Positions 21,186 to 55,477 of a DNA stretch of 64,000 nucleotides are shown in pieces. The stretch is from NCBI GenBank assembly GCA_964387845.1, contig CAYLXA010000012.1, positions 1 through 64,000 on the forward strand. The letters run 5' to 3'. The notes under the pieces are model-generated. The model was not told the DNA's origin. It saw only the letters and a program-made list of their open reading frames with translations, and did not search any database. A program made the translations under genes and the position numbers. Every line of letters begins with the position of its first letter. Position 1 is the first letter of the stretch. This DNA is from an uncultured bacterium (GTDB lineage: Bacteria; Omnitrophota; Omnitrophia; Omnitrophales; Abzuiibacteriaceae).

Positions 21186-21194
21186 GGAACCCAC

Positions 21195-24100
21195 ATGACA
21201 GTCAATTACGAAGATGTAAATGTATTTGATTCTGTGACAATTAAAATTGCCGCACCGGAAGCAATCCGTTCATGGTCGCACGGCGAGGTGAAGAAGCCCG
21301 AAACGATCAATTACCGGACGTTGAAACCGGAGAAGGACGGCCTTTTTTGCGAAAAGATTTTCGGTCCGGTCCGTGACTATGAATGCAGCTGCGGAAAATA
21401 TAAGCGCATCAAGCACAAAGGCGTGATTTGTGACCGCTGCGGCGTTGAAGTGACGCAGGCCAAGGTCCGCCGCGAGCGCATGGGCCATATTGAACTTGTG
21501 ACCCCGGTATCGCATATTTGGTTTTTCAAAACCATGCCTTCCCGAATCGGAAATCTCCTTGATTTAAGTGCCCGCGCCCTCGAAAAAGTCCTTTATTACG
21601 AAGATTACATCGTTGTTGATCCCAAAGAAACACCTCTTAAACCCAGACAGTTGCTTTCAGAAGAAGAATATGCCAAAGCCGTCGAACAATACGGCTCTAC
21701 CGCTTTTGTCGCCAAGATGGGCGCTGAAGCGATTAAAGAATTGCTCGCGCAGCTTGAGCTTGATAAGCTCGGCCAAAAATATTCACGCCAGGTAAATTCA
21801 TCAAAGTCCAAACAAGCACGTGCCCGCGGCGTTAAGATTTTGAAAATCGTCGAAGCGTTCCGCAAATCAGGCAACAAACCGGAGTGGATGATTTTGGACG
21901 TGGTTCCCGTGATTCCGCCGGATCTCCGCCCGCTCGTTGCTTTAGACGGCGGCCGTTTCGCGACTTCTGATTTGAATGACTTGTATCGCCGCGTGATCAA
22001 CCGCAACAATCGTTTGAAAAAATTGATCGAACTCAAAGCGCCGGACATTATTATTCGTAACGAAAAGCGCATGCTCCAGGAAGCTGTGGATGCATTGTTC
22101 GATAACGGCCGTCATGGACGACCGGTGTTGGATGCGTCAAACCGTCCGCTCAAGTCTCTCAGCGATATGTTAAAGGGCAAACAAGGCCGTTTCCGTCAGA
22201 ATTTGCTCGGAAAACGCGTTGATTATTCGGGCCGTTCGGTTATCGTGATTGGTCCGGAACTCAAGCTCCATCAATGCGGGCTTCCGAAGAAAATGGCGCT
22301 CGAACTTTTTGAGCCGTTTATTATCCGCAAATTGAAAGAGCGCGGCCACGTTCATACAATTAAGTCCGCAAAGCGCATGGTCGAAGGAGTTCGTCCGGAA
22401 GTTTGGGACATTTTAGAAGAAGTCATCCGCGAGCATCCCGTGATGCTGAACCGCGCACCCACACTTCACAGATTAGGTATTCAGGCATTTGAACCTGTAT
22501 TAATAGAAGGTAAGGCAATCCGCATTCATCCGCTCGTCTGCACGGCTTTTAACGCAGACTTTGACGGCGATCAAATGGCCGTTCACGTTCCGCTTTCTAT
22601 GGAAGCGCAGATGGAAGCCCGTATTTTGATGCTGGCCGCCAACAACGTGTTTTCACCGGCAAGCGGACAGCCGATCACGACTCCGTCACAGGATATCGTG
22701 CTGGGCAGCTACTATTTAACGAAGTCGAAAGACGGCTGCAAAGGCGAAGGCCGTACATTTGCCGACCGCGCGGAAGCGATCACGGCTTATCAGGATGAAG
22801 AAGTTGAAAAACACACTAAGTGCAAACTTCGTCTTGAAGATGGCAAGATCATCGAAACAACCGTCGGACGCATTCTATTTAATGAGGTTTTGCCGGCCGG
22901 TTTTGAATTTGTAAATGACAACCTGAACAAAGGCAAGCTTTCGAAAATCATCGCGAAATGCTACCGCAAGTTCGGCCATGCCGAAACGATCAAATTATTG
23001 GATCGTTTGAAACAGCTCGGATTTGAAGAAGCTACGAGAGCCGGCATTTCGATCGGTATCGATGATATCCGCATTCCAAAAATCAAAATCAAAATTTTAG
23101 AAGATGCCAAGAAACAGGTGGAATCGATCGAATCGCAATATCGCAACGGTTTGATTACCGAAGGCGAGCGGTACAACAAAGTGATCGATATTTGGACGCA
23201 TACCACAGACGAAGTCGCAGACCGCATGTTCGAAGAACTTGAATCCTTCAACCCGATTTTCATGATGGCCGATTCCGGCGCTCGCGGTTCGAAGCTTCAA
23301 ATTCGTCAGCTCGCCGGTATGCGCGGTTTGATGGCGAAACCTTCCGGTGAAATTATCGAAAGCCCGATTGCGGCAAACTTCCGCGAAGGTTTGACGGTTT
23401 TGGAATACTTTATTTCTACCCACGGAGCTCGTAAAGGTTTGGCTGATACGGCTCTTAAAACCGCCGATTCCGGATATTTGACACGCCGTTTGGTGGACGT
23501 GGCGCAGGATGTCATTATTTCAGAAGACGATTGCGGTACTTTGGCCGGTATTTTTATTGAGCCGGTGTATTCCGGTGAAGAAGTGGTGGTTCCGCTTAAA
23601 GACAGAATCTTGGGACGTGTGGCACTCGACAATATTATGGACATTGTCACCGATCAACAGGTCGTGAAAGCCGGAGAAGAAATTACGGAAGCTATCGCAG
23701 ACCGTATCGAGGAACTTGGGATCGAGAAAATCCGTATTCGTTCCGTGTTGACCTGTGAAGCGAAGCGCGGCGTTTGCATTCGATGCTATGGCCGTGATCT
23801 TGGTACGAATCAATTGGTTGAGCTTGGAACCGCGGCCGGTATTATCGCTGCGCAGTCCATCGGCGAGCCCGGAACGCAGCTCACGATGAGAACGTTCCAT
23901 ATCGGTGGTACGGCATCCCGTGTTGTTGAACAGTCTTACTATAAGACGAAAAACGGCGGAACAATCAAATACCACAACTTGAAAACCGTCGTGACGAAGA
24001 ACAACGAAATTATCGTTCTTAATCGAAACGGCCAAGTCACAATGCATGACAAGACAGGCCGTGAACTTGAAGATTACACAATTCCATCCGGTGCCATTCT

Positions 24101-25247
24101 TGCTTATAAGGACGGCGAAACTGTTCCGAAGGAAGAAATTTTCGTGAAATGGGATCCGTATACGGTTCCGATTTTGACGGAAGTCACCGGAAAAGTCCGG
24201 TTCGAAGATTTAAAAGCTGGTATTACGATGAATGAAGAAATGGATGCAACAACCGGTCTGATCGAGCGTGTGATTATCGAACACAAAGAAGAATTTCATC
24301 CGCAAATCGTGATTGTCGGCAATAACGACGAAATTTTGGCGTTCTATCCGATTCCGACGGGCGCCCATATCGTCGTGAAAGATGCTCAACAGGTGACGAG
24401 CGGTACCTTGATTGCAAAGACACCGCGTAAAGTTGCGAAAACCCGCGACATTACGGGCGGTCTTCCGCGTGTGGCCGAGCTTTTTGAAGCGCGTAAGCCA
24501 AAGAATCCGGCCATTATTTCCGAAATCGACGGCATTGTCGAATTTGGTGACGTGGTGAAAGGCCAGCGGAAAATTATTGTGAAGAGTTCTTCCGGAATGA
24601 CGAAAGAATATCTCATTCCGCACGGAAAACATTTGAACGTCTATAAAGGTGACCGCGTTGTCGCAGGCGAACAGCTTGTTGACGGACCCGTCGTTCCTCA
24701 AGACATTCTGCGCGTGAGCGGCGAACGCGCGCTTCAGGAGTATCTCGTTCAGGAAGTGCAGGAAGTTTACCGTCTACAAGGCGTGAAAATCAATGATAAG
24801 CACGTCGAGGTGATTGTCCGCCAAATGCTCCGCAAAGTCCGGATCGAAGATTCGGGTGACAGCGAATTTTTAGTGGGCTCACAAGTCGATCGTTTGAGAT
24901 TCCAGGAAGAAAATGAAAAATTGGTGAAAAAGGGCAAACAGCCGGCCAAAGCAGTTCCGATCTTGCTTGGCATCACCAAAGCATCGCTTAGCACCGAAAG
25001 TTTTATTTCGGCCGCAAGCTTCCAGGAAACCACCCGCGTTCTCACGGATGCGGCGGCAAGCGGCAAGCGCGATAGCCTCTTAGGCCTTAAGGAAAATGTG
25101 ATCATGGGTCACTTAATTCCCGCCGGAACCGGCTACGAAGCGCACAGGGGTATAGAATTGATCCGCGAGCGGATTGCGAAAGCCGAAGCGACTAACGTTG
25201 CGGTAGAGAATGCACCTAAAAAAGAAGACGAAGACGAGGAAGAATAA
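21195..25247 (+). CDS. rpoC: DNA-directed RNA polymerase subunit beta'
   Basis: Length is 1350 aa. NADFDGD and a Zn-binding CxxC are present. Confidence 0.97.
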
Positions 25248-25268
25248 CCTATTTAATTTGGAATTAAT

Positions 25269-25658
25269 ATGCCGACAATCAATCAGCTAATTAGACACGG
25301 AAGAAAGGCTTTTAAAAATCGTACCAAGTCACCGGCGCTTTCGAGCAATTGCTTTAAAAAGGGCGTCTGCTTGGTTGTGCGTACGCAGACACCGAAGAAA
25401 CCGAATTCAGCGCTTCGCAAAATTGCGCGTATTCGTTTAACAAACGGCGAAGAGGTTACGGCTTATATTCCCGGTGTCGGCCATAATTTGCAAGAGCACT
25501 CAATCGTGCTCGTGCGCGGCGGCAGGGTAAAAGACCTTCCGGGCGTTCGTTATCATATCGTTCGCGGTAAATTGGATGCCAGCGGCGTTGCGGACCGGAA
25601 TCGTTCACGCTCAAAATACGGCGCGAAAGTTCAAAAACAAGCAGCAGCAAAAAAATAA
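25269..25658 (+). CDS. rpsL: 30S ribosomal protein S12
   Basis: PTINQLIR...PNSALRK. Confidence 0.97.
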
Positions 25659-25673
25659 GATTGGATTAAATCA

Positions 25674-26141
25674 ATGAGACGAAGACGAGCAGCAAAACGG
25701 AAAATTTTACCGGATCCAAAATATAAAAATTTGGTAGTCGCTAAAATGATCAACATCATCATGGAGCGCGGTAAAAAATCAATTGCAGAAGGAATTGTTT
25801 ACGGCGCATTTGACGTCGTGAAGAAAAAATTGGACAAAGATCCTTTGGAAGTTTTTAAGCAGGCTGTTGAAAATGTGCGGCCGCTTTTGGAAACCAAATC
25901 ACGCCGTGTCGGCGGTGCAACGTATCAGGTGCCTGTCAGCGTAAAACCGGATCGCGGCGCCGGGTTAGCTTTAAGATGGATGAAAACATTTGCGTATGAT
26001 CGCAAAGGCAAGCCGATGGAAGAAAAGTTGGCGGAAGAATTTATGAACGCGTTTCAAAAAACCGGTGCGGCCATTAAAAAGCGCGAAGATGTTCACAAGA
26101 TGGCCGAATCAAACCGCGCATTCGCACATTATAAGTGGTAA
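25674..26141 (+). CDS. rpsG: 30S ribosomal protein S7
   Basis: Conserved S7 sequence. Confidence 0.95.
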
Positions 26142-26153
26142 GGATTTTATAAA

Positions 26154-28238
<2,085 letters not shown>

Positions 28239-28345
28239 GAAAGTTTTCATAAATTATTATTTATCATATAAAATAAGCAACTTAACGTAACACAACTGAC
28301 TAAGTATTTAAGTTATAAAATTAAATTCAGGGTAAGGAGATAACA

Positions 28346-29545
28346 ATGGCAAAAGAAAAATTTGATCGTACAAAACCGCACGTCAATATCGGAACGATTG
28401 GTCACGTTGACCATGGTAAAACCACTTTGACGGCCGCGATCACGCGCGTACTTGCAGAGCAGGGAAAAGCTGAGTTCAAAGAATATGCGGATATCGCAAA
28501 AGGCGGTACGGTTCGTGACGAAACAAAAATCGTGACGATTGCCGTTGCGCACGTTGAATATTCCAGCGATAAACGTCACTATGCCCACGTGGACTGCCCT
28601 GGACACGCGGATTACATTAAAAACATGATCACAGGCGCAGCCCAGATGGACGGCGCGATTCTCGTGGTATCAGCCGTTGACGGCCCGATGCCCCAGACGC
28701 GCGAACACATTCTGTTGGCCCGCCAGGTCGGCGTGCCGGCGATTGTGGTTTTCTTGAACAAAGTTGACTTGGTCGATGATCCAGAGCTGTTAGATCTCGT
28801 CGAACTCGAAATTCGTGATCTCTTGAAGAAATACGAATTTCCCGGCGACGAAATTCCGATCATTCGCGGTTCCGGCCTGAAGGCGCTCCAAGCACCGAAG
28901 GATCCGAAAGCAATCGAACCCATCATGAAATTGATGGAAGCTGTTGATAGCTATGTTCCGACACCAAAGCGTGATGTCGAGAAACCCTTCTTGATGCCGA
29001 TTGAAGACGTTTTCTCAATTTCAGGCCGTGGTACGGTCGGTACAGGCCGTGTCGAACGCGGACAAGTAAAAATTAACGAAGAAGTCGAAATCGTAGGCCT
29101 CCGTGAAAAGGCGATGAAGACAACCGTCACCGGAATCGAAATGTTCCGCAAGCTTCTTGATGACGCTCAGGCAGGTGATAACGTTGGTCTCCTTCTCCGG
29201 GGCGTTGAAAAGAAAGATCTCGAGCGCGGAATGGTGATTGCGAAAACCGGCAGCGTGACGCCACATACCAAATTCAAAGCTCAGATTTATATCTTGAGCA
29301 AAGAAGAAGGCGGACGTCATACACCGTTTTTCACCGGCTATCGTCCTCAGTTCTATTTCAGAACAACGGACGTGACAGGTGTTGTAACGCTCCCGAAGGG
29401 CACCGAAATGGTAATGCCCGGCGATAACGTAACGGTTGAAGGCCAGTTGATTACTCCGATCGCAATGGAAAAGGAACTTCGATTCGCGATTCGTGAAGGC
29501 GGCCATACCGTCGGCGCTGGCGTTGTCAGCGAAATTTTAGCGTAA
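28346..29545 (+). CDS. tuf: Elongation factor Tu
   Basis: GHVDHGKTT and DCPGHADY are present. Length is 399 aa. Confidence 0.97.
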
Positions 29546-43619: not shown

Positions 43620-44615
43620 ATGGGAATTCGTTGGAAAACATTTGAAACACCAAAGCGCCTGGAAGTAGAGAAGTCAACCTTGACGCCTACTTACGGCAAA
43701 TTTGTGGCAGAGCCTTTTGAAAGAGGTTTCGGCGTCACGATCGGAAACGCGCTCCGCCGCGTTCTGATTTCATCGATTGACGGCGCAGCTGTGTCGCATA
43801 TCAAGATTGACGGCGCGATGCATGAGTTTTCGGTGATTGACGGCGTCATGGAAGATGTTGCACAAATCGTGCTCAACATCAAGAAGCTCGTGCTGCGTTA
43901 TCACGGAAAAGATGCGAAGAAAATCGTGATCGATGTGCACAAAAAGGGCGAAATTACGGGCCGCGATATTCAGGCGGATGAAACGCTTGAAATCATCAAC
44001 CCGAATCAGCATATTGCCACGCTTACGAAAGACGTTAAGTTTTATATGGAAATGGAAGTTGCGCGCGGCCGCGGCTACATGCCGGCTGACCGTAACAAAA
44101 AAGATGGTGCGCCGATCGGCTCTATCGCGATCGACTCGATCTTTTCACCGGTCACCAAGGTCAATTACTTTGTCGAAGAAACCCGTGTCGGCCAGATGAC
44201 CGATTACGACCGTTTGATCGTCGAAGTATGGACCAATGGTGCCGTAAACCCTGAAGAGGCAATGCTTTACGCATCAAACATCCTTCAGCGCCATCTCGAT
44301 ATTTTTGTCAACTACGGCGAGCTTCCGGAAGAGGAAGAAGAGGAAGAAGAGGAGGATAAAGATTTTCTTGAACTCATCAACAAACCGATCACAGAACTCG
44401 AGCTTTCGGTTCGCAGCGCCAATTGCTTGGAGGCTGCCAGCATTAAGACAATCGGTGATCTTATCCAGAAAAGCGAAGCGCAGATGCTGAAATATAAAAA
44501 TTTCGGCAAGAAATCGCTTGTTGAAATTCAAAATATTCTTACCGGCATGGGCCTGCAGTTGGGCATGGATGTTCAGGACCGGATGAAGAAAAAGAAAGAA
44601 ACAGTGGCAGGGTAA
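43620..44615 (+). CDS. rpoA: DNA-directed RNA polymerase subunit alpha (poly-Glu linker)
   Basis: NTD and CTD are present. The linker is [11 protein letters not shown]. Confidence 0.95.
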
Positions 44616-44616
44616 A

Positions 44617-45195
44617 ATGTGGCATCAAAGACAGCGCGGCAGGTTAGGGCTTGAAACGGAACACCGGGTATCGCTTTTGCGGAATCTCGCCAAGGAACTG
44701 GTCGAGCATCACCGTGTGATCACCACACGCAAACGCGCAAAAGAAGCCTCGAAGTTTGCCGATAGGCTCATTACCATTGCGAAGAAACAAACTTTGCATG
44801 CACGCCGTCTGCTCATCTCTGAATTAGGTTCAGGCTCCGAATTGGTTGCGAAGCAATTGATCGAGAAAATCGCACCGAAGTTTTCCGACCGTAAAGGCGG
44901 CTATACGCGCGTGCTTCAATATAAATTCCGAAAAGGTGACGGTGCCGAACTTGCGCTATTAGAGTTTTCGACCCAAATCGCTGAGCCGAAAGCGCCGAAG
45001 CAAAAGAAGGAAAAGAAGAAAAAGCCGGAAACGGGTGAAGCAAAAAAAGAGCACGCTCATCCGCACACACACGAAAAGCCAAAAGAGCCGAAAAAAGAAG
45101 CCAAAAAGGCCGAAGAAAAGAAAACCGGCGAGACCCCGAAAAAGGGCGGTTTCCTGGGCGGCCTTCGTAAATTCTTAACCGGCAAAGACGAATAA
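44617..45195 (+). CDS. rplQ: 50S ribosomal protein L17 with roughly 70-aa Lys/Glu/Pro-rich C-terminal extension
   Basis: An L17 core is followed by a low-complexity basic tail. Confidence 0.9.
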   Translation: MWHQRQRGRLGLETEHRVSLLRNLAKELVEHHRVITTRKRAKEASKFADRLITIAKKQTLHARRLLISELGSGSELVAKQLIEKIAPKFSDRKGGYTRVLQYKFRKGDGAELALLEFSTQIAEPKAPKQKKEKKKKPETGEAKKEHAHPHTHEKPKEPKKEAKKAEEKKTGETPKKGGFLGGLRKFLTGKDE

Positions 45196-45198
45196 TTC

Positions 45199-46383
45199 AT
45201 GAGCCGATTGGCCAATCGCGTTCAAAAAGTCACGCCTTCGCAGACGCTTGCCATCGAAGCAAAGGCCAAGCAGATGAAACAGCAAGGCATTAACGTTGTT
45301 TCGTTTTCTGCCGGCGAGCCCGATTTCGATACTCCGGATTACATTAAAGAAAAAACCATCGAATCCCTGAAAAAGGGTTTTACCAAATACACGCCTGCAC
45401 CGGGAACGCCCGAATTACGCGAATCCATTTCCAAAAAATTGGCTGCCGAAAACGGCTTAAAATATGATCCGAGCCAAATCATTGTTTCCTGCGGCGCCAA
45501 GCATTCGATTTACAATATTTTCCAAGTGCTGCTAAACGAAGGCGACGAAGTCGTATTCCAGAGCCCGTTTTGGCTGAGCTACCCTGAAATGGCAACATTG
45601 GCGGGCGCCAAGTCCGTTATTGTTCCGACTACTAAAGAACAGGACTACAAATTATCCGCTGCAGCGCTTGAAAAAGCCATCACGCCCAAAACCAAATTGC
45701 TCGTACTCAATTCACCGTCTAACCCGACGGGAGCCGTGCTCAACAAAAAAGAATTAATGGAAATAGCGGAAGTTTGCAAAAAGAAATCCATTTTTGTCCT
45801 GAGCGATGAGATTTACGAAAAACTGGTTTACGACGGCGAAAAGCATTATTCGATCGGTTCTTTCGATGAGGATATTTTGAAATTGACGATTACCGTCAAC
45901 GGCGCAAGCAAAGCTTACGCGATGACCGGCTGGCGCCTGGGTTATGCGGCTTGCCCGAAGGAAATTGCAAACGCTGCGTCTTCGCTGCAAAGCCATTCCA
46001 CATCAAACCCGACATCGTTTGCACAAGTCGGCTTTCTGGAAGCTATTAAACAAGGCGATAACTTTCCAAACCAGATGCGCGAAGCTTATGAAGTGCGCAG
46101 AAACTTGATGGTCGATCTTTTGAATGAAATTCCCGGCTTCAGCGCATTTAAGCCGAAGGGTGCTTTTTACGTATTTTGCGATATTTCCGGAACCAAAATG
46201 TCTTCGTTAGATCTTTCTGCCAAGCTGCTTGAAGAAGCCAAAGTGGCGGTTGTGCCCGGTGTTGCATTTGGCGACGATAAAGCGATCCGCCTCAGTTTCG
46301 CGACGTCGGAAACCCAAATCCGCGAAGGCGTCAAACGTATTGCCGAATGGTTCAATAAGAGCCCGGTTTCTGTTAAGTCGTAA
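45199..46383 (+). CDS. Class I/II PLP-dependent aminotransferase (aspartate aminotransferase-like)
   Basis: The Schiff-base lysine lies in SKAYAMTGWRLGY. NPTG is present. Confidence 0.8.
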   Translation: MSRLANRVQKVTPSQTLAIEAKAKQMKQQGINVVSFSAGEPDFDTPDYIKEKTIESLKKGFTKYTPAPGTPELRESISKKLAAENGLKYDPSQIIVSCGAKHSIYNIFQVLLNEGDEVVFQSPFWLSYPEMATLAGAKSVIVPTTKEQDYKLSAAALEKAITPKTKLLVLNSPSNPTGAVLNKKELMEIAEVCKKKSIFVLSDEIYEKLVYDGEKHYSIGSFDEDILKLTITVNGASKAYAMTGWRLGYAACPKEIANAASSLQSHSTSNPTSFAQVGFLEAIKQGDNFPNQMREAYEVRRNLMVDLLNEIPGFSAFKPKGAFYVFCDISGTKMSSLDLSAKLLEEAKVAVVPGVAFGDDKAIRLSFATSETQIREGVKRIAEWFNKSPVSVKS

Positions 46384-46434: not shown

Positions 46435-48336
46435 ATGAAATCCCTTTTCCAGCTCCGGGTCGGAGAAAAAATAGAAAAAGACGAACTCATCGACAAACTT
46501 TTCGAACTCAATTATGTCGAGGAGCGCTCCGTCGGTTCCCCGGGTGAATTTGCGCATCGGGGCGGTATTGTCGATATTTACCCAATCTCTTACCGCGCGC
46601 CTGTGCGGGTTCATTTTCATCTAGACCAAATCGAATCCATCCGCGATTTCTCGCCCGAGCAGGGCAAAAGCCTGACCACATTCGAAGAACTTTTCCTGAT
46701 GCCGGCAAGCGACCTTTTTCTCAAACGAAAGAGCCGGATGCGCGAGCGTTTTGAATCCTTTGAGCCCTTAACCGAAATCGGCGACGTCAAACAGGGCTCT
46801 TTGGTTGTTCATCTCCAGTATGGCGTGGGGCGCTTTTTAGGCGCCAAAATGCTTAATATCGACGGTAAATCAAAACGCCACCTGGCCATTGAATATGCCG
46901 ACAAAGAGATCCTTTACGTTCCTGCAGACGGCCATGAACCGATTGAGCGTTACATCGGCGTTGAGGGCAAGCGGCCGAAACTCACCAAACTCCACAGCAA
47001 AGAGTGGATCCGCATCAAAGAAAAGGCGCGGCTTGCGGCACGCGGCGTTGCGCGTGATATCGTCACGCTGCAGGCGAAGCGCAGCATCTTAAAAGGATTC
47101 GCGTTTGCCGAGGACCACGATTGGCAAAAAGATTTTGAAAATAAATTTCCGTTTGAACTTACACCCGACCAAAAAAAATCGGTTGAAGAAGTGAAGCGCG
47201 ATATGGAAAGCGAAAAACCGATGGACCGTTTGATTTGCGGCGATGTGGGTTACGGAAAAACCGAAGTTGCGTTCCGCGCTGTTTTCAAAGCCGTCATGAA
47301 TGCCAAACAGGTTGCGATTTTAGCGCCGACCACGATTTTGGCGGAGCAGCATTATGTGGTCCTGAAGAAACGCGCCAAAGATTTCCCGGTAAAAATAGAG
47401 CTTCTCTCCCGGTTTCGTTCGAAAGCGGAACAAAAAGAAGCAATTCGCCAAGTGGCGGATGGCGCTGTTGATGTGATTATCGGGACACACCGGCTTTTGT
47501 CGTCTGATGTGAAATTTCGTGACTTGGGACTTGTCGTGATCGATGAGGAACAGCGCTTCGGCGTCCGCCACAAAGACCGCTTGAAGCATTTGCGCGAGCT
47601 GGTTGATGTTCTGACGCTCACCGCAACGCCGATTCCGCGTACGCTTTACCTTTCGCTTTTGGGATCACGCGATATGTCGATTATCAGCACGCCGCCGAAG
47701 CAGCGGCTCCCGATTATTACGCAAGTTTTGGAATTCGATGATCTGATCGTGAAACAAGCGATTGACCGCGAGCTTGCACGTAAGGGCCAGGTTTATTTTG
47801 TCCACAACCGGATTGAATCCATCGAAAAAATCCACGCGCATTTGCACGGGCTTTTGCCGCGCATCAAGTTCGGTGTGGCGCACGGGCAAATGAATGCACA
47901 TGAACTTGAAAAAGTGATGACGCAATTTATCGACGGCAAAATTGATTGCCTGATTTCAACCAACATCATCGAATCCGGCCTCGATATTCCGAACGTGAAT
48001 ACGATCTTAATTAACCGCGCGGATGCATTCGGTTTGGCGGATCTGTATCAATTGCGGGGCCGTGTGGGGCGCTATCATACGGAACGTCAGGCCTATGCCT
48101 ATTTCTTGATTCCGCGCAACTGGGTGATGACGCAGGATGCCGAAAAGCGGCTTTCAGCGATTGAGCGCTTCAGCGAACTTGGTTCCGGCTTTAAAATCGC
48201 GATGGAAGACCTCGAAATTCGCGGTGCCGGGAATGTGCTCGGGGAAGAACAGAGCGGATTTATTTACCAAGTGGGGTTTGACCTCTACTGCCGGATGCTC
48301 CGAAAGGCCATTGACGAGGAAAAATCCCATCTGTAA
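46435..48336 (+). CDS. mfd: Transcription-repair coupling factor Mfd, minimal form (D2–RID–translocase; no D1a/D1b/D3/D7)
   Basis: The helicase motifs are GDVGYGKTE, DEEQRFGV, TATPIPRT and QLRGRVGR. The RID-like stretch is VVHLQYGVGRF. Length is 633 aa against about 1150 for canonical Mfd. Confidence 0.75.
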   Translation: MKSLFQLRVGEKIEKDELIDKLFELNYVEERSVGSPGEFAHRGGIVDIYPISYRAPVRVHFHLDQIESIRDFSPEQGKSLTTFEELFLMPASDLFLKRKSRMRERFESFEPLTEIGDVKQGSLVVHLQYGVGRFLGAKMLNIDGKSKRHLAIEYADKEILYVPADGHEPIERYIGVEGKRPKLTKLHSKEWIRIKEKARLAARGVARDIVTLQAKRSILKGFAFAEDHDWQKDFENKFPFELTPDQKKSVEEVKRDMESEKPMDRLICGDVGYGKTEVAFRAVFKAVMNAKQVAILAPTTILAEQHYVVLKKRAKDFPVKIELLSRFRSKAEQKEAIRQVADGAVDVIIGTHRLLSSDVKFRDLGLVVIDEEQRFGVRHKDRLKHLRELVDVLTLTATPIPRTLYLSLLGSRDMSIISTPPKQRLPIITQVLEFDDLIVKQAIDRELARKGQVYFVHNRIESIEKIHAHLHGLLPRIKFGVAHGQMNAHELEKVMTQFIDGKIDCLISTNIIESGLDIPNVNTILINRADAFGLADLYQLRGRVGRYHTERQAYAYFLIPRNWVMTQDAEKRLSAIERFSELGSGFKIAMEDLEIRGAGNVLGEEQSGFIYQVGFDLYCRMLRKAIDEEKSHL

Positions 48337-48391
48337 AGCAGGCCCAGAGAGGTTGAAAAAAGGGCTTCTGTGTGATAACTTAAGAATTCTT

Positions 48392-49372
48392 ATGTCTGCC
48401 AAAATCTTTAGAAATACACTTCTTTTATTGCTTGCAGCGTTGCTTCAAAGCACTTTCGTGCACGCCAGGGAAGCGCTTGTGGACCGCATTGTGGCAACCG
48501 TCAGCGACGAAGTCATCACGCAAAGCGAATTAGACGCGCTTTTTCGTCCTGTTGCCGAACAGTTCCAAGGTGTTTATCAGGGGCAGGAACTCATGGAAAA
48601 ATTAACGGAGACTCGGAACAAACTGCTCAGCCAGCTGATTGAAGATAAGCTGGTTTTGCTTGAAGCCAAGCGGATGGACATTGATGCATCGGAATCAGAA
48701 ATCAACGAGCGGCTCGATGAACTAAAAAGCCAATTTCCGGATGAGGCGGCTTTTCAGAAGGCTTTAGAGGATCAGCAAGTTACTTTGACCACTTTGAGAA
48801 AGCGCATGGCGGAGCAGGTTATTATTCAAAAACTTCATTATATAGAGATTCGCCAGAAAATCATTGTTTCACCCTCCGAAATTCAGGAGTATTTCAATGC
48901 TCATCCAGAACAGTTTCAAGATAAAGCCAAAGTGGAAATTTGGACGATTGCTATTCGAAAGAAGCCTGAAGCTGCCCAGCGCGGCATCGCGGATGAAGCC
49001 GCAAAACAAAAAGCTGAAATAATCCTAAAGGAATTAAGATCCGGCAAGGATTTCTCAGAGATTGCCAGGAAAGAATCCGGCGATTCTCATGCGGCGAAGG
49101 GCGGTTTGATAGGCATGGTTCAAAAAGGCGATTTGATAGAGGAAATTGATAATGCTATATTTCAATTAGAATCGAATCAGATTTCGGATATTGTAGAAAC
49201 TGCCCATGCTTATCATATTTTTAAAGCCGGGAGCAAGCAGCCTGAAAAAAAACTGACATTCGAGGAAGCCAAAGACCAGATTTCGGATTTTCTTTTCCGT
49301 CAGAAAGCCAGCACGCGTTTTAAAGAATGGATGCAAGAACTTCGAAAAAAATCCTACATTTCAATCCGGTAG
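48392..49372 (+). CDS. surA: SurA-like periplasmic chaperone / parvulin PPIase
   Basis: A signal peptide is followed by a SurA N-domain and a parvulin domain (SGDSHAAKGGLIG). Confidence 0.7.
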   Translation: MSAKIFRNTLLLLLAALLQSTFVHAREALVDRIVATVSDEVITQSELDALFRPVAEQFQGVYQGQELMEKLTETRNKLLSQLIEDKLVLLEAKRMDIDASESEINERLDELKSQFPDEAAFQKALEDQQVTLTTLRKRMAEQVIIQKLHYIEIRQKIIVSPSEIQEYFNAHPEQFQDKAKVEIWTIAIRKKPEAAQRGIADEAAKQKAEIILKELRSGKDFSEIARKESGDSHAAKGGLIGMVQKGDLIEEIDNAIFQLESNQISDIVETAHAYHIFKAGSKQPEKKLTFEEAKDQISDFLFRQKASTRFKEWMQELRKKSYISIR

Positions 49373-49379: not shown

Positions 49380-50360
49380 ATGCCTCGCCAATCAATAATT
49401 GCCGTGACGATGGGCGACCCGGGCGGTATCGGCCCCGAAATTATTCTGAAAGCCTTAAAATCCTGCAAAAAGAAACAATCGCAGCCAATCTTGGTTGTCG
49501 GCAGCCGGGCGGTATTTGAATTCGCGGGCAGAAAATGCCGCGTTTCCATTCCTTTTCATTTCATCTCTGAGCTTGATCAATTCCGGCTTCGGTCTGATTC
49601 AATCAATTTTTTGGATATCTCGCGAGAAACCGAAAAATCATTTGCGCCCGGAAAAGTTACCCGCGCCAACGCAAAACTCGCTTTCAAAAGCCTCGAAACA
49701 GCAGCGCGCCTTGCCAAAGAGAAAAAAGTTCAAGGCATCGTAACGGCGCCGGTTCACAAAGAGGCAATGCGGCTTGCGGATCCTCATTTTGTCGGTCACA
49801 CCGAATATTTAGCGAAAGTGTCACGAACGAAAGAATTTGCGATGCTTTTTCACAGTCAATATTTCTGCGTTACACTTGTAACGATCCACGTGCCGCTTCG
49901 GAAAGTTGCGGACACAATTACGGCGCAAAGTATCCGGTCCAAAATCAGGCTGACTCATGATTTTTTGAGGAAAAAACTCAAAATCAAATCTCCCCAAATT
50001 GCCGTTGCGTGCCTCAATCCGCACGGCTCCGAATTCGGGCCCGAGGAAGACCAGACCATTATTCCGGCAATCAAATTTGCCCAAAAGCAGGGAATAAAAG
50101 TCTCAGGCCCGCTTCCGGGCGATCAGGTTTTCCACGATGCCTATCAAAAGAAATATCATGCGGTTGTAAGTATGTATCACGACCAAGGGTTAGCGCCGTT
50201 TAAAATGATTGCGTTTGACACCGGCGTCAACGTAACTGTCGGTCTTCCCTTTATCCGAACGTCTCCCGATCACGGCACTGCATTTGATATTGCCTACCGA
50301 AACAAAGCAAACCCGACTTCGTTTTCTCAAGCTCTTCAGTTTGCCCTCCAACTAGCTTAA
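49380..50360 (+). CDS. pdxA: 4-hydroxythreonine-4-phosphate dehydrogenase
   Basis: PdxA family motifs (MGDPGGIGPEI, HTEYL). The position after surA matches the E. coli surA-pdxA-ksgA arrangement. Confidence 0.8.
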   Translation: MPRQSIIAVTMGDPGGIGPEIILKALKSCKKKQSQPILVVGSRAVFEFAGRKCRVSIPFHFISELDQFRLRSDSINFLDISRETEKSFAPGKVTRANAKLAFKSLETAARLAKEKKVQGIVTAPVHKEAMRLADPHFVGHTEYLAKVSRTKEFAMLFHSQYFCVTLVTIHVPLRKVADTITAQSIRSKIRLTHDFLRKKLKIKSPQIAVACLNPHGSEFGPEEDQTIIPAIKFAQKQGIKVSGPLPGDQVFHDAYQKKYHAVVSMYHDQGLAPFKMIAFDTGVNVTVGLPFIRTSPDHGTAFDIAYRNKANPTSFSQALQFALQLA

Positions 50361-50505
50361 TTTAAGTACTAAATAGTTCTATTTATAGCTATATATATGT
50401 AAATTATCACCTAAAAATTTGACTTTAACCATCATCTCAGATATATTATTATCTAATCACTCAGTAAAATCTAAATTCCGTTTTGGACGGGGGTTTTTAC
50501 CCTTC

Positions 50506-53500
50506 ATGAAACAAAAATTAAAGCCGGCAGAGCGCTTACTCATAGCGTTGTTTGTATCGATCTTCACGTTTTCTGCGGTGGTATCGGCTGCTCCTCAGTC
50601 TTCCGGCTTTCTACACGCTTACGAGGCAGAAAGTTTTCTGGGTCCTGTATTGGCATCGCTCCCGCGTGATGTCTCCAAAGTTAGCGAGACATTCGTTCCT
50701 GCCCATTGCTCAGTCGGTCAAGCGGATTGCCCGGTTATTCTGCACATCCAGGATGCCCACGCCAATCCTGAAGCGCAAAAGCATATTCAAGAAATTATCG
50801 AGGCCGTGTACCGCCGGTTTGGTAATGTCCGGATTGCCGTTGAAAATGCGGAAGGGCCGCTTGATCCGGAGATTTTCAATCGCTCACCAATCGATCCTGT
50901 TATGCGGGAGAAGATCGTTCAGGCTTTGGCGAATGAAGGCGAGCTCACTGGCGCAGAATTGTTTTTGCTGGATCTTTACAGAGAAGGGAAAGAAAAGCCT
51001 GCTCATGTTCCCGTATTGGGTGTTGAGGATCAGGCGTTGTATTTTAAAAATTTGGATCGTTACTTAACGCTTTTACAAAATCGAAAAACCATCGACGCAT
51101 CTTTCTCAAAACTGAACGATCTTTTTGTCCGAACGAAAAGCCTTCACTTTAATCCGGCGCTGAAGCAGTTTGATGACGAGCGCAAAGCGCATTCTCAAAA
51201 CCGGCGTGAACTTTTGTCATATTTGAAAACACTGAATGCTCGGGCTCAGTCGATCCTCAATACAGACTTGTCCGATCCTATCGAACAGCTCCGCTTTCCA
51301 AATTTAACCCGGCTTGCGCGTCTTGGGCAATTGGAAGAAAGTTGGAAAGATGAAGAATTAAGTGAAGAAAGAGCGCAGTTAGAAGCAGAATTGCTTAAGC
51401 GGGGAGGTTCGTCGGATGTGATAGCCGAACTGATTCAATCGATTAAAGCGCTTAGCCAGAAACCGGAAAAATTTGGTGTTGATTTTAAAATCGCGCCGCG
51501 TCTATTGCTCGAGCAGATGGAATTTTTTGCGCGTAGACATCAGGTCAATTTAGCTTCCTACTCTCGCCTCATTCGTTTTGTTTCGTTTCAAGTTTTACAG
51601 TCTGAAATTAATGCGGTAGAGCTTTTTGGTGAAATCCACCATTTGGAAAATTCGATTTTAGGCCGCCTGGCCGAAAGTGCAGAAGAAAAAAAGCTCGTTG
51701 AAATCGGCCGGTCTATGGCGTTGCTTCAGAAAATGTTGCACGGAGAAGTGACTAGAGCGGACAAAGAGCGCTTTTCTGAACAGCAGAATCAAATAGGTCC
51801 CGCCGCAATTGTTGGAGAGTTATTTGAGCTTAATCCAAAGATATCATCGACAATCCGTGCAGATATGATTCAGCCGATTGAGCTGTTGAAACGGTTTTTG
51901 TCGGCGTCTGCCGAGTTTTATCATGGCGCAGAGGCGCGCGAACATGCCATGATCGACAAAGCGCTTCAGATGCTGCCCAAGCGCAACTCATTTACGCTTT
52001 CAGAAATACAAAACAGTAATAGGCAGGTTCTTGTTTTAATTTCAGGAGGATATCACACGGGTGGTTTCGAACAAATTCTTGAAGCAAAACAAATTCCTTA
52101 CGTAGTTGTATCACCTCGCATGTTCTTGCCCATAGACGATCAAATGTATGCGCGTGTCATGTTGGGTCGTGATGATGAAATTTCAGGCCTTTCTTCCGGA
52201 ACCGCACAAAATATCTTTAGGCCTCTTTTGACATGGAATATTAACTCTGCGCATCGAAATCAAACGCTGGTTCGGCTGCAAGAATCCCTGCAGGCGCATG
52301 AAAGCAGAAGCGAGTTAAGAGCTGATCAGCCCAACGTCCGCTTTTTATCGCGTACCGCGGAAGCTGAAGTGATGCAGTTCGTGCAGGATATTAAGAAAAG
52401 GTTTGAGAATAAATATTATAAATTCATCGAGGAACCAAAGATTCTTGAGGGTGTTGCTGCTTTTTTTGGATTGAATGAGGAAAACGATCTTCTTCTACAC
52501 GAAAAAGCAAAGCAGATTCTATCTTACTTAATCAAAAAAACGAAAAGAGAAGTTAAAGAAATGTATCGATCGCAAATCGTTGAGGCTCTTACCAAAGTTA
52601 CGCGTCACTCAACAGGTGCTCATCGTTTTATGCCGCTTGCGCTTGCCGTTGTGAACATGTTCCGCGGCCAGAATATTTTTTCATCGGATATTATCAGCGA
52701 ACTTGTCGCTATAGACAATTCTTTCGAATATTTAAGAAATACAGATCACCTTTATGCCAATCCTTTTAACGTCGAGTCTAACTGGATTTCTGACCATTTG
52801 CCAAAATTGGCGATTCCCAGAATTCCTTCAAAGAGAGTATATCGATGGCTGGATATTGGATCCGGCCCTAAGTTGGATGGAGCACCTACCCTTCATTTGT
52901 TAAACGAAACTTTCAAAAGCGCTTTACCGGATGCGCGGTTTGAGTTTGTCGGTACAGACAACTTCTTTCCGGCTTATTCATTCGATGACGAATCAGTTTT
53001 ATTTTTTACCGGCCGGATTTCTTCTAGCCCATTTAATTCCGATGCGTTTCGTAAATCAGGCAAGATGAATTTGGCGGACGTTACTTATTTGGATGCCAAT
53101 TTTCCTCAGAATAATGTGATGGATGAGAGATCTATGGAAGGGATGTTTAAGGACGGGCCGTTTGATTTTATTTCTTTAAGCATGGCCCTTCATTTTTTGC
53201 GGGAGCCTGACGAGGAAATAAAGAAATTGGCGTTATCGAGCAATAAAGGTGAAGACCAATTTGAATTTTATGACGAATCAGGCAGCCGGATTCGTCCCAC
53301 GCCTACTTATTTGCTGACCGAAACGCAAAGAAGAGTCATTTGGCGCTTAATGCGAAACCTGTCTGACAACGGCATTTTATTTTTAAACTTACCTTGGGGC
53401 CCCGAATATGCGAAAAATCACAACCTTGATCTATTTTTAATCATCCAACGCGAAAATGCCGTTGCGTTTAAGCTTTACACTCAGGCGATTCCCTTTAGAC

Positions 53501-54594
53501 CAACGCTTCGAAAGTTTTCATCCGGGGATTATTTAACAGTCGGTTATCAAGGTAAAGAAAAAATGGGAACCGTTTATCATAGCCCGGGGATATTTCATTT
53601 ATATCCCGGCCGCGATGAAGCTTTCTACAACCAAGTGCGGACTTTTCTTCACATAGCAGACATTATGGTTTACCGGCATCAGGAGAGAGATAAATCTGCC
53701 TGGTCTAGCGTTATGCGTGCAGCCGAACAAATTGCAAATCATGCGTCGCTGGAAGAGATATTTCGTAGTTATATGGCCAACGTTCCCGACCATGAAGTTA
53801 CAAAAGGATTGATCTTGAACAAGGTCCAGCAGTTAGAAAAAACGGTGACAGATAGCCGTTCTGAGCTTCGATTTTCGTTTCAAGACGTAGTTGAAGAATT
53901 GCAAGCCATCATTGACGCATCGCAGCGTGCCGGATTTACTCCGGTTCCTGAATTTTTAAAGACCCAGCATCCTAATTTGTCAGCTGATTTGAGCCGGATT
54001 GGTGAACTTACTTCTGTTTTGCATGCAATCACTTTTCCAAATACACAGAAACCACAACCTGTAGTGGGCCAGGTTGTGAAAGTGATTGATGCCCAAGATT
54101 TTGATCCCGCTCAATATCAATCCGTAATGGATGATTTGATCGATCGTGGAGTCAAATTGGTTCTTGCAGTTCAAAATCACAATCCGCAAACTTTTAAAGC
54201 TATCAAAAACAAGCTGAATCAATTGCTGATTAAAGCCGCACAAGAAAAAGGTTTTGCACCGGATGATGTCATCAACCGGCTGGCTGTTGAATCGTTTAGC
54301 TCGGCGACTGCGCAAGAAATTCAAAAATTGATTGCAACACGGGATTTGATTAATGCATCCGCAGTAATTTCCGAAGATTCAAGCATCTTAGAAAACGTTC
54401 GGTCCGCGCTTCGATTTTTAGATGACACACGCCACGAGCCGGAGTTGTCTGCCGTTGCATTGAAGGAAGTTGTAAAAGCGGTTACGAATCCGAAAGCGGT
54501 TCAGAATCGTTTTGGCGTGATCAGTTTAAGCGATTGGTTAAGTACGAAACTGACGGTGATCTTAGGCGAGCGTCAGGCAGCGATATCTGCCTAA
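50506..54594 (+). CDS. Large uncharacterised secreted or membrane-anchored protein (1363 aa) with TraB/GumN/TIKI-like and methyltransferase-like motifs
   Basis: The N-terminus is a signal peptide or TM anchor. ILHIQDAHAN...IAVE and LISGGYHTGGF resemble the two His motifs of TraB/TIKI. WLDIGSGPKLDG resembles SAM MTase motif I. The ORF may start at 50419. Confidence 0.6.
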   Translation: MKQKLKPAERLLIALFVSIFTFSAVVSAAPQSSGFLHAYEAESFLGPVLASLPRDVSKVSETFVPAHCSVGQADCPVILHIQDAHANPEAQKHIQEIIEAVYRRFGNVRIAVENAEGPLDPEIFNRSPIDPVMREKIVQALANEGELTGAELFLLDLYREGKEKPAHVPVLGVEDQALYFKNLDRYLTLLQNRKTIDASFSKLNDLFVRTKSLHFNPALKQFDDERKAHSQNRRELLSYLKTLNARAQSILNTDLSDPIEQLRFPNLTRLARLGQLEESWKDEELSEERAQLEAELLKRGGSSDVIAELIQSIKALSQKPEKFGVDFKIAPRLLLEQMEFFARRHQVNLASYSRLIRFVSFQVLQSEINAVELFGEIHHLENSILGRLAESAEEKKLVEIGRSMALLQKMLHGEVTRADKERFSEQQNQIGPAAIVGELFELNPKISSTIRADMIQPIELLKRFLSASAEFYHGAEAREHAMIDKALQMLPKRNSFTLSEIQNSNRQVLVLISGGYHTGGFEQILEAKQIPYVVVSPRMFLPIDDQMYARVMLGRDDEISGLSSGTAQNIFRPLLTWNINSAHRNQTLVRLQESLQAHESRSELRADQPNVRFLSRTAEAEVMQFVQDIKKRFENKYYKFIEEPKILEGVAAFFGLNEENDLLLHEKAKQILSYLIKKTKREVKEMYRSQIVEALTKVTRHSTGAHRFMPLALAVVNMFRGQNIFSSDIISELVAIDNSFEYLRNTDHLYANPFNVESNWISDHLPKLAIPRIPSKRVYRWLDIGSGPKLDGAPTLHLLNETFKSALPDARFEFVGTDNFFPAYSFDDESVLFFTGRISSSPFNSDAFRKSGKMNLADVTYLDANFPQNNVMDERSMEGMFKDGPFDFISLSMALHFLREPDEEIKKLALSSNKGEDQFEFYDESGSRIRPTPTYLLTETQRRVIWRLMRNLSDNGILFLNLPWGPEYAKNHNLDLFLIIQRENAVAFKLYTQAIPFRPTLRKFSSGDYLTVGYQGKEKMGTVYHSPGIFHLYPGRDEAFYNQVRTFLHIADIMVYRHQERDKSAWSSVMRAAEQIANHASLEEIFRSYMANVPDHEVTKGLILNKVQQLEKTVTDSRSELRFSFQDVVEELQAIIDASQRAGFTPVPEFLKTQHPNLSADLSRIGELTSVLHAITFPNTQKPQPVVGQVVKVIDAQDFDPAQYQSVMDDLIDRGVKLVLAVQNHNPQTFKAIKNKLNQLLIKAAQEKGFAPDDVINRLAVESFSSATAQEIQKLIATRDLINASAVISEDSSILENVRSALRFLDDTRHEPELSAVALKEVVKAVTNPKAVQNRFGVISLSDWLSTKLTVILGERQAAISA

Positions 54595-54595: not shown

Positions 54596-55477
54596 TCAAA
54601 GTGCGATTTTCTCTTTTTTCTCAATTACCTGAGCCAAATTCAGAAAATCCTTCAGCAGCAATTCTTCCGCACGCTTTGTGGATTTGATTCCGGATTCTTC
54701 AAGCGCTGATTCAATTACGGCTTTTGGATAAATCTCGCGAAATCCGTGGCTCACGGCGTTTAAAACATTCTTCCTGCGCTCGTTAAAGGCAAACCGCACA
54801 ACCTCAAAAAACAAAGTTTCATTCACATTCGGTTCTTTTCCGTGAAAGACGAACTTCGCAACACTGGATTTTACTTTCGGTTTTGGTGAGAAGCAGCTCG
54901 GCGATACATCAAACTCACGTGTCACGTCCGCGTAAAACCTCGCAAGGATTGTCAAGCGCCCGTAGTCTTTCGTACCGGGCTGCGCGAGCATCCGGTCAAT
55001 AATTTCTTTCTGCATCATCAAAACCGCATAATCGATTAATTTCCGGTGGTTGATCAGAAACAAAACAATCGGGGTTGTGATGTAGTAGGGAAGATTACCG
55101 ACGACTTTCAGAAGTTTTGCACTTGGTTTTTTCTTAGGCAAAATTTTGGAAAGATTAAAACTTAAGATATCGCCTTCAATTACAGTTAGATTCTTACTTG
55201 AGCTTCCAAATTCAGATCTTAAAATATTGGCAAAGCGCGGGTCTTTTTCGATCACGGTGATATTAGCGCCGGTTAAAAGCAGCTGATCGGTCAAAGCACC
55301 GAGCCCCGGGCCAATCTCAAGCACCAAATCTTCCGGTTTCGCATCAACGAGAGCGATGATTTTGCGCTGAATATTGGGATCAATGAGGAAGTGTTGTCCG
55401 CGAATACCGGCAACCGTAATCTCATATTTACGAAGGAGTTCCAACTGTTTTTGCATTTGGGGATTATACGGCTTCAA
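54596..55477 (-). CDS. rsmA: 16S rRNA (adenine1518/1519-N6)-dimethyltransferase
   Basis: VLEIGPGLGALT and the remaining KsgA core are present. Confidence 0.9.
   Translation of the reverse strand: MKPYNPQMQKQLELLRKYEITVAGIRGQHFLIDPNIQRKIIALVDAKPEDLVLEIGPGLGALTDQLLLTGANITVIEKDPRFANILRSEFGSSSKNLTVIEGDILSFNLSKILPKKKPSAKLLKVVGNLPYYITTPIVLFLINHRKLIDYAVLMMQKEIIDRMLAQPGTKDYGRLTILARFYADVTREFDVSPSCFSPKPKVKSSVAKFVFHGKEPNVNETLFFEVVRFAFNERRKNVLNAVSHGFREIYPKAVIESALEESGIKSTKRAEELLLKDFLNLAQVIEKKEKIAL

Follow-up and report, generated by a model that had tools for sequence, protein, structure and literature searches.

A candidate exported modular carrier in an uncultured Omnitrophota bacterium: a Tiki/TraB-like head, one RSELR-bounded methyltransferase-like cargo and a C-terminal tail

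Introduction

Omnitrophota are widespread, uncultured and probably predatory or parasitic nanobacteria, and their long multi-enzyme proteins are an acknowledged puzzle. Giant and multi-enzyme proteins of the phylum have been described (10.1101/2023.11.21.568195; 10.64898/2026.06.07.730766; PMC10066038; all in extract), and a predatory or parasitic lifestyle has been proposed (PMC10066038, in extract). The stretch of DNA analyzed here, 64,000 nucleotides of an Omnitrophota contig (CAYLXA010000012.1, assembly GCA_964387845.1; hereafter the window), carries between pdxA and an inverted rsmA a long gene whose 1362-residue product fits no family in Pfam or NCBIfam. What kind of protein does this gene encode, and why does a family of such proteins look as if it were built from exchangeable parts? 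We report that the protein is composed of a signal-type N-terminus, a head related in fold to the Tiki/TraB superfamily, a methyltransferase-like cargo flanked by two copies of the pentapeptide RSELR, and a tail. We propose, with a probability of roughly 45%, that it is a Sec-exported, polyprotein-like modular carrier of a very large, undescribed and almost exclusively Omnitrophota family, cut at RSExR motifs.

Results

A minimal chassis with one cargo

The open reading frame (ORF) extends from 50419 to 54594 on the + strand without interruption in the ORF list of the window, and the Pfam/NCBIfam assignments of its neighbors agree with the placement of a roughly 4.1-kb ORF between pdxA and an inverted rsmA made in an earlier reading of this DNA from its letters alone (the sequence-only reading). 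The likely start is the ATG at 50506, the first ATG in the ORF, with which the N-termini of homologues agree; it gives a product of 1362 aa (MKQKLKPAERLL...), whereas the TTG called mechanically as the start (50419) falls on the -35 hexamer of the region's best promoter-like site. An identical 1362-aa protein is present in the NCBI and Logan collections, on a 98.5-kb contig. As the same reading had stated, the protein is without annotation: searches of the full sequence against Pfam and NCBIfam returned no family at threshold, the sole match being Methyltransf_23 at 17.3 bits against a cut-off of 27, and the PADLOC and PHROGs models for anti-phage defense and phage proteins gave zero matches.

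As judged by comparison with its relatives, the window protein is a minimal chassis with one cargo between two RSELR motifs. The architecture, which had gone unrecognized, is that of a family of more than 10,000 clusters in its minimal form with a single cargo, and the label "giant" did not hold, since a product of 1362 aa ranks among the smaller complete family members. Its parts are as follows.

50506..54594, + strand: coding sequence of the predicted carrier protein, 1362 aa plus stop; identical protein in public collections
50506..50589, + strand: Sec-type signal peptide or signal anchor, residues 1-28 (MKQKLKPAER, hydrophobic core, VSA-AP), as read from sequence
50668..52173, + strand: N-module (head), residues ~55-556, alpha/beta core of the Tiki/TraB/ChaN/EreA superfamily type with a helical insertion
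52306..52320, + strand: first RSELR, residues 601-605, in the head-cargo linker; surrounding predicted local distance difference test (pLDDT) values 37-44
52321..53856, + strand: cargo, residues 606-1117, with an N-terminal helical part (invariant H-R-F-x-P), a predicted class I S-adenosylmethionine (SAM)-methyltransferase core and a C-terminal helical part
53857..53871, + strand: second RSELR, residues 1118-1122, right past the end of stand-alone homologues; pLDDT 39-49
53872..54591, + strand: C-module (tail), residues 1123-1362, predicted alpha/beta, ending ...LGERQAAISA-COOH; pLDDT low, 50-68

The N-terminus (MKQKLKPAERLLIALFVSIFTFSAVVSA-AP) shows a basic n-region, about 19 uncharged residues and then VSA-AP, in keeping with the N-terminal signal or anchor that had been suggested. 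When a simple heuristic was applied to 161 complete N-termini of the family, a net-positive n-region followed by a hydrophobic core was found in 151 of them, and the median uncharged run was 14 residues, a signal-peptide length rather than a transmembrane length. The N-terminus of the window protein is accordingly classed, as a prediction, as of the signal-peptide type.

The head has the fold and the motifs of the Tiki/TraB superfamily

Conservation within the head was assessed in an alignment of 26 heads (A1), which also served as the base of the head profile. The features that it brings out are listed here together with their positions in an AlphaFold2 (AF2) model.

50749..50760, + strand: Q82-D83-A84-H85, first His motif, at the C-terminal end of strand 77-83 (alignment and AF2 strand)
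50842..50844, + strand: E113, at the end of strand 108-112 and 28 residues past H85; invariant
51025..51027, + strand: E174, in a G-h-E motif past strand 170-173; invariant
51031..52005, + strand: all-helical insertion of ~320 aa, residues 176-500, containing the subfamily motif IEQLRFPNLTR
51937-51939, + strand: R478, near the end of the helical insertion; invariant
52045..52056, + strand: G514-G515-Y516-H517, second His motif, past strand 508-514; G514, G515 and H517 invariant

The residues invariant in A1 are Q82, A84, H85, Q91, E113, G172, E174, F471, R478, G514, G515, H517 and P537, and D83 is kept in at least 90% of the heads. The AF2 model of the head (pLDDT 83.4; predicted template modeling score, 0.77) contains a small core of parallel strands (77-83, 108-112, 170-173, 508-514 and 532-537) split by the helices of residues 176-500, and H85, E113, E174 and H517, like D83, each lie past a predicted core strand. 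All seven best structural matches of the head are members of the Tiki/TraB/ChaN/Ere superfamily, namely ChaN (2g5g; score, 9.0), the Bacillus cereus "succinoglycan biosynthesis proteins" 2rad (target BcR135; 8.6) and 2qgm (8.5), a TraB family protein (8.2), the MARTX effector RRSP (8.0), EreC (7.9) and HopBA1 (7.8).

Active members of this superfamily are defined by a set of two His and two Glu residues, which in RRSP comprises E3900, H3902, E3930 and H4030 and is essential by mutagenesis, and the corresponding pair in Bcr135 is His85/Glu113 (PMC6254334, in extract). Compared with these published positions, D83-x-H85 of the window protein corresponds to E3900-x-H3902 of RRSP and H517 to H4030, while the His-to-Glu spacing of 28 residues is the same for H85/E113 here, His85/Glu113 in Bcr135 and H3902/E3930 in RRSP. 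Alignment and model thus agree in placing a constellation of the 2His/2Glu type in the head, with Asp for the first Glu.

Sequence profiles had little to say about this relationship. PF04187, the Tiki-superfamily model that includes ChaN, was the only Pfam family matched by more than one head (3 of 26; best E, 0.0015); the window protein did not match the Pfam models TraB_PrgY_gumN, Cofac_haem_bdg and Erythro_esteras at E ≤ 0.1, a profile search of PDB sequences with the head found nothing, and a Foldseek search of the head model against PDB gave nothing significant, with the long helices dominating the matches. Membership of the head in the Tiki/TraB/ChaN/EreA superfamily is therefore put forward at the level of fold and motif, where it is supported by the alignment and the model. 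It was at this level that the sequence-only reading had anticipated it from two His motifs about 450 aa apart: QDAH lies at residues 82-85, IAVE ends in E113, and GGYH follows at 514-517, 432 aa past QDAH, and the TraB/GumN/TIKI-like fold that it guessed is borne out by the AF2 model, the structural matches and the invariant D83-x-H85/E113/H517. Because no existing Pfam family of the superfamily reaches threshold, the head constitutes a new family within it, a new and very large branch that is without a database model.

A pentapeptide marks module boundaries

The hexapeptide SRSELR occurs twice in the window protein, and its pentapeptide recurs in relatives. Among 209 head-bearing proteins with 471,000 residues, the pattern R[SA]E[LVIMFAT]R was found in 197 copies as opposed to 9.8 expected from composition, while patterns with the residues permuted or exchanged conservatively (such as K for R or D for E) yielded just 2-16 copies. 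Only 1 of the 197 copies falls inside a head, against 46 expected, and the median distance from the end of the head to the first motif is 147 residues. The motif is also concentrated in the family, with a density of 1.26 per 1000 aa compared to 0.19 in other ORFs of the same loci; most of these background motifs sit in large neighboring ORFs, several of which are identifiable family members. Conservation stops at the edges of the motif, where small residues, Pro and Glu are frequent.

The two copies in the window protein are encoded differently (AGC AGA AGC GAG TTA AGA and AGC CGT TCT GAG CTT CGA), and 124 motif instances across the loci give 114 different 15-mers. As nearly all synonymous positions differ and so many of the 15-mers are distinct, selection acts on the peptide and not on the DNA. 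The same two observations rule out a target-site duplication or a recombination site as the source of the RSELR pair.

Several lines of evidence place the motif between modules. In a second AF2 model both copies of the window protein have pLDDT values of 37-49 and lie between well-modeled parts; residues 606-1117 are co-extensive with stand-alone homologues, which in the alignment end about 10 residues or less from the second RSELR; successive motifs in the relative P0009, 147 aa apart, flank receiver domains (five by Pfam); and GT1, alpha-amylase, UDP-glucose dehydrogenase and TPR cargoes each lie between consecutive motifs. A recurring junction consensus outside folded domains, as is found in polyproteins, is thus present, and the sequence comparisons indicate that the motif is a marker of module boundaries in the subfamily to which the window protein belongs.

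The repeats of P0009 (1998 aa) deserve separate mention: residues 692-1712 consist of near-identical units of about 147 aa, with successive RSEVR motifs 147 aa apart that are mostly followed by ENRQPLAK, and the pattern looks like a recent tandem duplication of a whole motif-delimited module.

If the motif served as a docking or recognition site, the protein would be an uncleaved, envelope- or membrane-tethered multi-domain enzyme whose head acts outside, for instance as an esterase or peptidase on molecules of the envelope or of prey surfaces, or binds heme or another ligand as ChaN does. We consider this unlikely, yet a serious contender. The one recurring weak Pfam match of the heads is to the ChaN family, published topology surveys call most long Omnitrophota proteins membrane-associated, and a subfamily whose proteins end in ...[SA]L has the head without the motif, so that the function of the head would be independent of the motif. 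What such a protein would leave unexplained is the pattern of the junctions, since an R..E.R pentapeptide with unconserved flanks at every junction, outside the folded domains, is what polyprotein cleavage sites look like, and docking motifs seldom need one copy per junction. The conservation of the full His/acid set likewise argues against a mere binder.

The cargo is a rare methyltransferase-like module

52828..53475, + strand: predicted class I SAM-methyltransferase core, residues ~775-990, with an invariant G-x-D past strand 2, and FDFISLSMALHFL
52846-52872, + strand: putative motif I, WLDIGSGPK, residues 781-789

A search with residues 571-1362 recovered six stand-alone proteins of 447-534 aa that match the window protein at residues ~600-1120, and residues ~709-1119 are well modeled (pLDDT 80-95 in the second AF2 model). 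The window protein and the six stand-alone homologues share the invariants H-R-F-x-P...A...N in the N-terminal helical part, followed by W-L-D-I-G-S-x-P-K-x-x-G-x-P-T-L, G-x-D, D-x-I-S...H, G-x-I-x-F and A-D...Q. A match to Methyltransf_23 below threshold (17.8 bits against 27) was returned by 6 of 7 members of the cargo family; their G-loop, DIGS[AG]PK, deviates from GxGxG, and the acidic G-x-D downstream is invariant. The cargo has the class I SAM-methyltransferase (Rossmann-like) fold, and the guess of the sequence-only reading is supported at the level of fold; the stretch around residue 800 in which it saw a resemblance to motif I is WLDIGSGPK.

The family is rare, with about 9 homologues among 5.8 billion clusters; a repeat search with the cargo alignment added no members, and the cargo profile found nothing among PDB sequences. 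One homologue, P0034 (1272 aa), has the same order as the window protein (head, RSELR, methyltransferase, RSELR, tail), and another, P0033 (1234 aa), has a different N-terminal region, the cargo module and then a histidine phosphatase. This N-terminal region of P0033, about 400 aa without annotation, has a signal-like start of its own, and no RSExR motif is present in the protein, which may be a carrier of another kind. One stand-alone cargo homologue was examined in its genomic context and is surrounded by housekeeping genes only.

These observations bear on a reading in which the product is a methyltransferase that faces the cytoplasm, anchored in the membrane by its N-terminal hydrophobic segment, its place near rsmA and pdxA hinting at housekeeping RNA or protein methylation. 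The need of the cargo for SAM would suit such a topology, as would the need of other family cargoes for nicotinamide adenine dinucleotide (NAD), uridine diphosphate (UDP)-sugars and phosphorelay partners and the housekeeping surroundings of stand-alone homologues, and a 2026 preprint (10.64898/2026.06.07.730766, in extract) reads many long Omnitrophota proteins as anchored with their domains in the cytoplasm. We nevertheless regard it as quite improbable, given the basic residues ahead of the hydrophobic core, the AXA-like site after it and the signal-peptide length of the median uncharged run in the family. PrgY and ChaN act outside the cytoplasm, and the known Tiki members are extracytoplasmic as well. 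Moreover, a syntenic relative (see below) is without a methyltransferase at this locus, so that the link to rsmA and pdxA is positional only.

The C-terminal tail comes in two types

54517-54591, + strand: terminal tail segment

Proteins of the family tend to end alike. The ending [SA][LAV]-COOH was found in 143 of the 209 head-bearing proteins (SL, 66; AL, 32; AA, 22; SA, 14; SV, 5; AV, 4), and in proteins of the ...[SA]L type as well as those of the ...[SA]A type, to which the window protein belongs, a conserved amphipathic segment takes up the last ~25 residues. The last ~230 residues of the ...[SA]L group make up one conserved domain (107 of 146 tails fall in one cluster), which no Pfam model covers. 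Tails of the ...[SA]A type are more diverse: that of the window protein matches only the tail of P0034 (34% identity over 72 aa), and a hidden Markov model of the ...[SA]L-type C-module detected neither the C-module of the window protein nor the other ...[SA]A tails. No NCBIfam or Pfam model matches the C-module, and hence no recognized C-terminal domain of the type IX secretion system was found. The delimiter goes with tail type, being present in 24 of 39 ...[SA]A proteins and in 5 of 107 of the other type, and the distance from the last RSExR to the C-terminus is 190-310 aa in 17 of 24 subfamily members.

Two observations concern the ...[SA]L proteins. Their terminal domain ends (for instance in P0021, P0122 and P0077) in L[RK]I[RK][KP][IV]D[WFY]EEIx[DE][WY]xxAxEAV[LA][RT][SA]L-COOH, an amphipathic, Glu-rich end with the look of a signal for secretion or recognition. 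In their cargo regions, 14 of 97 of these proteins contain the pentapeptide GHAGG, against 0.1 expected, and it is probably part of a further cargo domain.

The head defines a large family centered on Omnitrophota

A search of 1.84 billion representative proteins, clustered at 50% identity, with the A1 profile matched 10,344 clusters at E ≤ 1e-3 and 7,325 at E ≤ 1e-30; the family has neither a Pfam nor an NCBIfam model. The 150 best matches listed, proteins of 630-7683 aa, all have a head that begins no later than residue 76. Of 45 genome loci recovered at one genome per species, 43 belong to Omnitrophota or to unclassified metagenome-assembled genomes, the remaining two coming from bins labeled Planctomycetales and Myxococcales. 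A search with the full protein gave a similar picture, with 28 distant relatives (22-31% identity, 780-2300 aa), every source-named one of which is labeled Candidatus Omnitrophota or Omnitrophica. By BLAST mapping, the region common to these relatives is residues ~10-560 of the window protein only, always at their own N-terminus, and their C-terminal parts hold unrelated Pfam domains.

Several genomes have two to four copies of the head family, and many of the ORFs exceed 3900 aa and extend past the 10-kb flank. Tandem family genes were seen at L016 33-9605, L044 207-9626, L006 214-8655, L027 191-9379, L005 3101-9791 and L012 12002-16672, where the neighbors, ~900 to >3100 aa long, end in ...[SA]A and carry RSExR motifs or hold a second QDAH head. 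Since these large neighbors have the C-terminal signature of the family or another head, tandem arrays are common. A gene for an ABC-F type ATPase (~630 aa) lies near a head-family gene in 12 of 41 Omnitrophota loci, directly upstream in L021 (7686-9587); none adjoins the long gene in the window.

The sequence-only reading had suspected a lineage-specific insertion. This did not survive comparison with a syntenic relative, Omnitrophica bacterium RIFCSPLOWO2_12_FULL_44_17 (L036), in which surA and pdxA are followed by a family gene, two other genes, rsmA and gatCAB, the products being 44-69% identical to those of the window. As a family gene follows pdxA there too, the position is common to the relative and not unique to the genome of the window. 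The shared gene order indicates that the window most likely derives from a related Omnitrophota genome, as the distribution of the family also suggests. The family protein of L036 is 802 aa long and has a signal, a head 33% identical to that of the window protein and a tail ending FRKSA, with neither cargo nor delimiter. The orientation of rsmA differs, being co-oriented in L036 and inverted in the window. Between the family gene and rsmA, L036 carries a gene for a Cys-rich, 342-aa signal-peptide protein (5436-6464, + strand) without a Pfam match and an inositol monophosphatase gene.

Leader and neighborhood of the long gene

The genes next to the long gene were assigned by Pfam/NCBIfam, and one promoter-like site was recognized ahead of it.

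46435-48336, + strand: short Mfd, upstream of the SurA-like gene
48137-49372, + strand: SurA-like peptidyl-prolyl isomerase
49380-50360, + strand: pdxA
50419..50447, + strand: promoter-like site TTGACT-17-TATATT, a consensus match only (10/12 positions), best of the region and inside the AT-rich spacer
54596-55477, - strand: rsmA/ksgA, convergent with the long gene
beyond rsmA, downstream of the long gene: gatC, gatA, gatB

The spacer ahead of the gene (50361-50505, 145 bp) has a GC content of 27% compared to 47% for the window, and is therefore as AT-rich as had been described. The GC content at third codon positions of the long gene is lower than that of its neighbors, a comparison that had been proposed as a check, at 0.42 versus 0.47-0.58; the difference is only moderate, and with a family gene kept at the same position in a relative, a recent foreign origin is poorly supported. 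A terminator-like hairpin, TTCCGTTTTGGACGGGG followed by GTTTTT, lies at 50476-50492 (+) between the promoter-like site and ATG 50506; an attenuator is one possibility, a chance match the other.

The Mfd product is only 633 aa long and covers positions 283-820 of the 907-position mfd model, without the usual N- and C-terminal parts; the ORF just 5' of it (45199-46383) encodes a class I/II aminotransferase and not the absent N-terminus. The Mfd ORF and the SurA-like ORF as called mechanically overlap by 200 nucleotides. The remainder of the window is core housekeeping, with five tRNAs, rpoB, rpoC, fusA, tuf, rpoA and rplQ (166-407, 12732-14302, 17379-29545 and 43620-45195), which places the long gene in a conserved chromosomal region with no obvious island.

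Discussion

The reading that we favor is that of an exported carrier divided at its linkers. The head would be catalytically active as a hydrolase, most probably an RRSP- or Tiki-type endopeptidase with site specificity, and once exported it would cut the R-[SA]-E-h-R linkers of its own chain (in cis) or of another copy. The window protein would thereby yield a head of ~64 kDa, a methyltransferase of ~59 kDa and a tail of ~27 kDa, and the tail may serve a further step as a signal for sorting or anchoring. The larger paralogues carry many cargo domains on the same chassis (receiver arrays, GT4, UDP-glucose dehydrogenase, amylase and TPR). One may speculate that this range of cargoes fits putatively predatory or parasitic bacteria that would deliver enzymes to their surface or to the cells of prey or hosts, and the need of the cargoes for SAM, NAD, UDP-sugars and phosphorelay would fit delivery into another cell. 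A narrower proposal, that R-[SA]-E-h-R is the cleavage site of the Tiki-like head in cis and that the family is a new type of bacterial secreted polyprotein, whose constant head and tail would first export the protein and then release exchangeable enzyme cargo, possibly into or onto prey, is offered tentatively and is to our minds rather doubtful.

A number of points weigh against the carrier model. Cleavage and the peptidase activity of the head are both predictions from sequence and model. The same fold covers esterases (Ere), a heme binder (ChaN, the top match) and inactive members (PMT); D83 stands where the RRSP set has its first Glu, and the putative catalytic set was derived from the alignment and the strand ends. 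The motif is limited to one subfamily (57 of 209 proteins), and a search for an equivalent delimiter in the larger ...[SA]L subfamily gave none, so that the same head must have some other role as well. The C-module is modeled with low confidence and is weakly similar across the subfamily, and the signal-peptide call is heuristic. SAM-methyltransferase, receiver and nucleotide-sugar cargoes need cytoplasmic cofactors, which is awkward for export unless they are delivered into another cell.

A polyprotein could also be cut in trans by a separate protease, for example an Arg-specific enzyme of the envelope or a secreted one, or a C39 or S8-type peptidase, with the head serving export, folding, anchoring or the attack on prey. 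The motif evidence is the same for this arrangement as for cleavage by the head, the head is conserved in a subfamily that lacks the motif, and for the Omnitrophota giants a processing role of C39 and S8 peptidase domains has been put forward. In 41 loci, however, no conserved protease gene was found beside the family genes, the ABC-F ATPase gene being the only recurrent neighbor, and head subtype (IEQLRFPNL), motif and tail type co-vary as if working together, a pattern that shared ancestry would also produce. We see processing in trans as distinctly unlikely.

The 1362-aa protein is of interest beyond its own locus. Through a small member, the shared Tiki-like head, the boundary pentapeptide and the conserved tail provide a concrete, testable rule for how the long proteins may be divided, and a protein with one cargo is small enough to express, so that cleavage can be tested directly. 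If the motif is indeed the cleavage site of the head, it would be the first usable rule for cutting the long proteins of Omnitrophota into functional products. The methyltransferase-like cargo is itself a rare and uncharacterized family. The structural guesses of the sequence-only reading stood at the level of fold, and what it missed were the RSELR delimiters, the conserved C-terminal tail and the Omnitrophota context.

Individual folds of the protein are known, and no description appears to exist of the head family, of the delimiter or of a chassis of head, cargo and tail. A literature search for "RSELR" returned only unrelated software names. In the 2023 preprint on the Omnitrophota giants (10.1101/2023.11.21.568195, in extract), cleavage by C39 or S8 peptidase domains is suspected and the cleavage points are given as unknown; term searches of this preprint and of the 2026 one found no TraB-type head, polyprotein or linker and, in the latter, no cleavage. 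The giants share with the family described here the phylum, the cargo types (methyltransferase, receiver, GT1 and TPR/HEAT) and the signal peptide or membrane association; they differ in size, those studied having at least 10,000-30,000 aa compared to 1362 aa, and in the C39, S8 and SecA-like domains named there.

With the superfamily of Tiki/TraB/PrgY/GumN, ChaN and Ere, which includes RRSP and HopBA1, the head shares the parallel-sheet alpha/beta core, the two His motifs at strand ends and the acidic residues. Tiki, PrgY and ChaN are extracytoplasmic, and by its predicted export the head would be so likewise. It is set apart by the ~320-aa helical insertion that splits the core, by Asp for the first Glu and by its N-terminal place in long multi-enzyme proteins. 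The cargo differs from CheR and other class I SAM-dependent methyltransferases, which have the usual GxGxG G-loop, by DIGS[AG]PK, by its own invariants H-R-F-x-P and A-D...Q, and by a similarity under the Pfam threshold. To the cargo of type IX secretion only the general layout, a signal peptide and a conserved C-terminal module, is alike.

MARTX toxins use a cysteine protease domain (CPD) that is activated by inositol hexakisphosphate and cuts after Leu; they carry RTX repeats, lack a Sec signal peptide and leave by type I secretion. The head family instead combines a Sec-type signal, a Tiki-like head and the R-[SA]-E-h-R motif, processing here being a prediction, and neither an RTX nor a CPD domain was detected in the window protein by Pfam or NCBIfam. 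In both, constant ends surround a set of modules that varies between paralogues or strains, and in MARTX these effector modules are released at short inter-module sites by a processing domain acting in cis (PMC6254334, in extract). A MARTX toxin or a viral polyprotein is thus the closest working analogy for the protein of the window, a likeness in the proposed mode of action and not in family membership.

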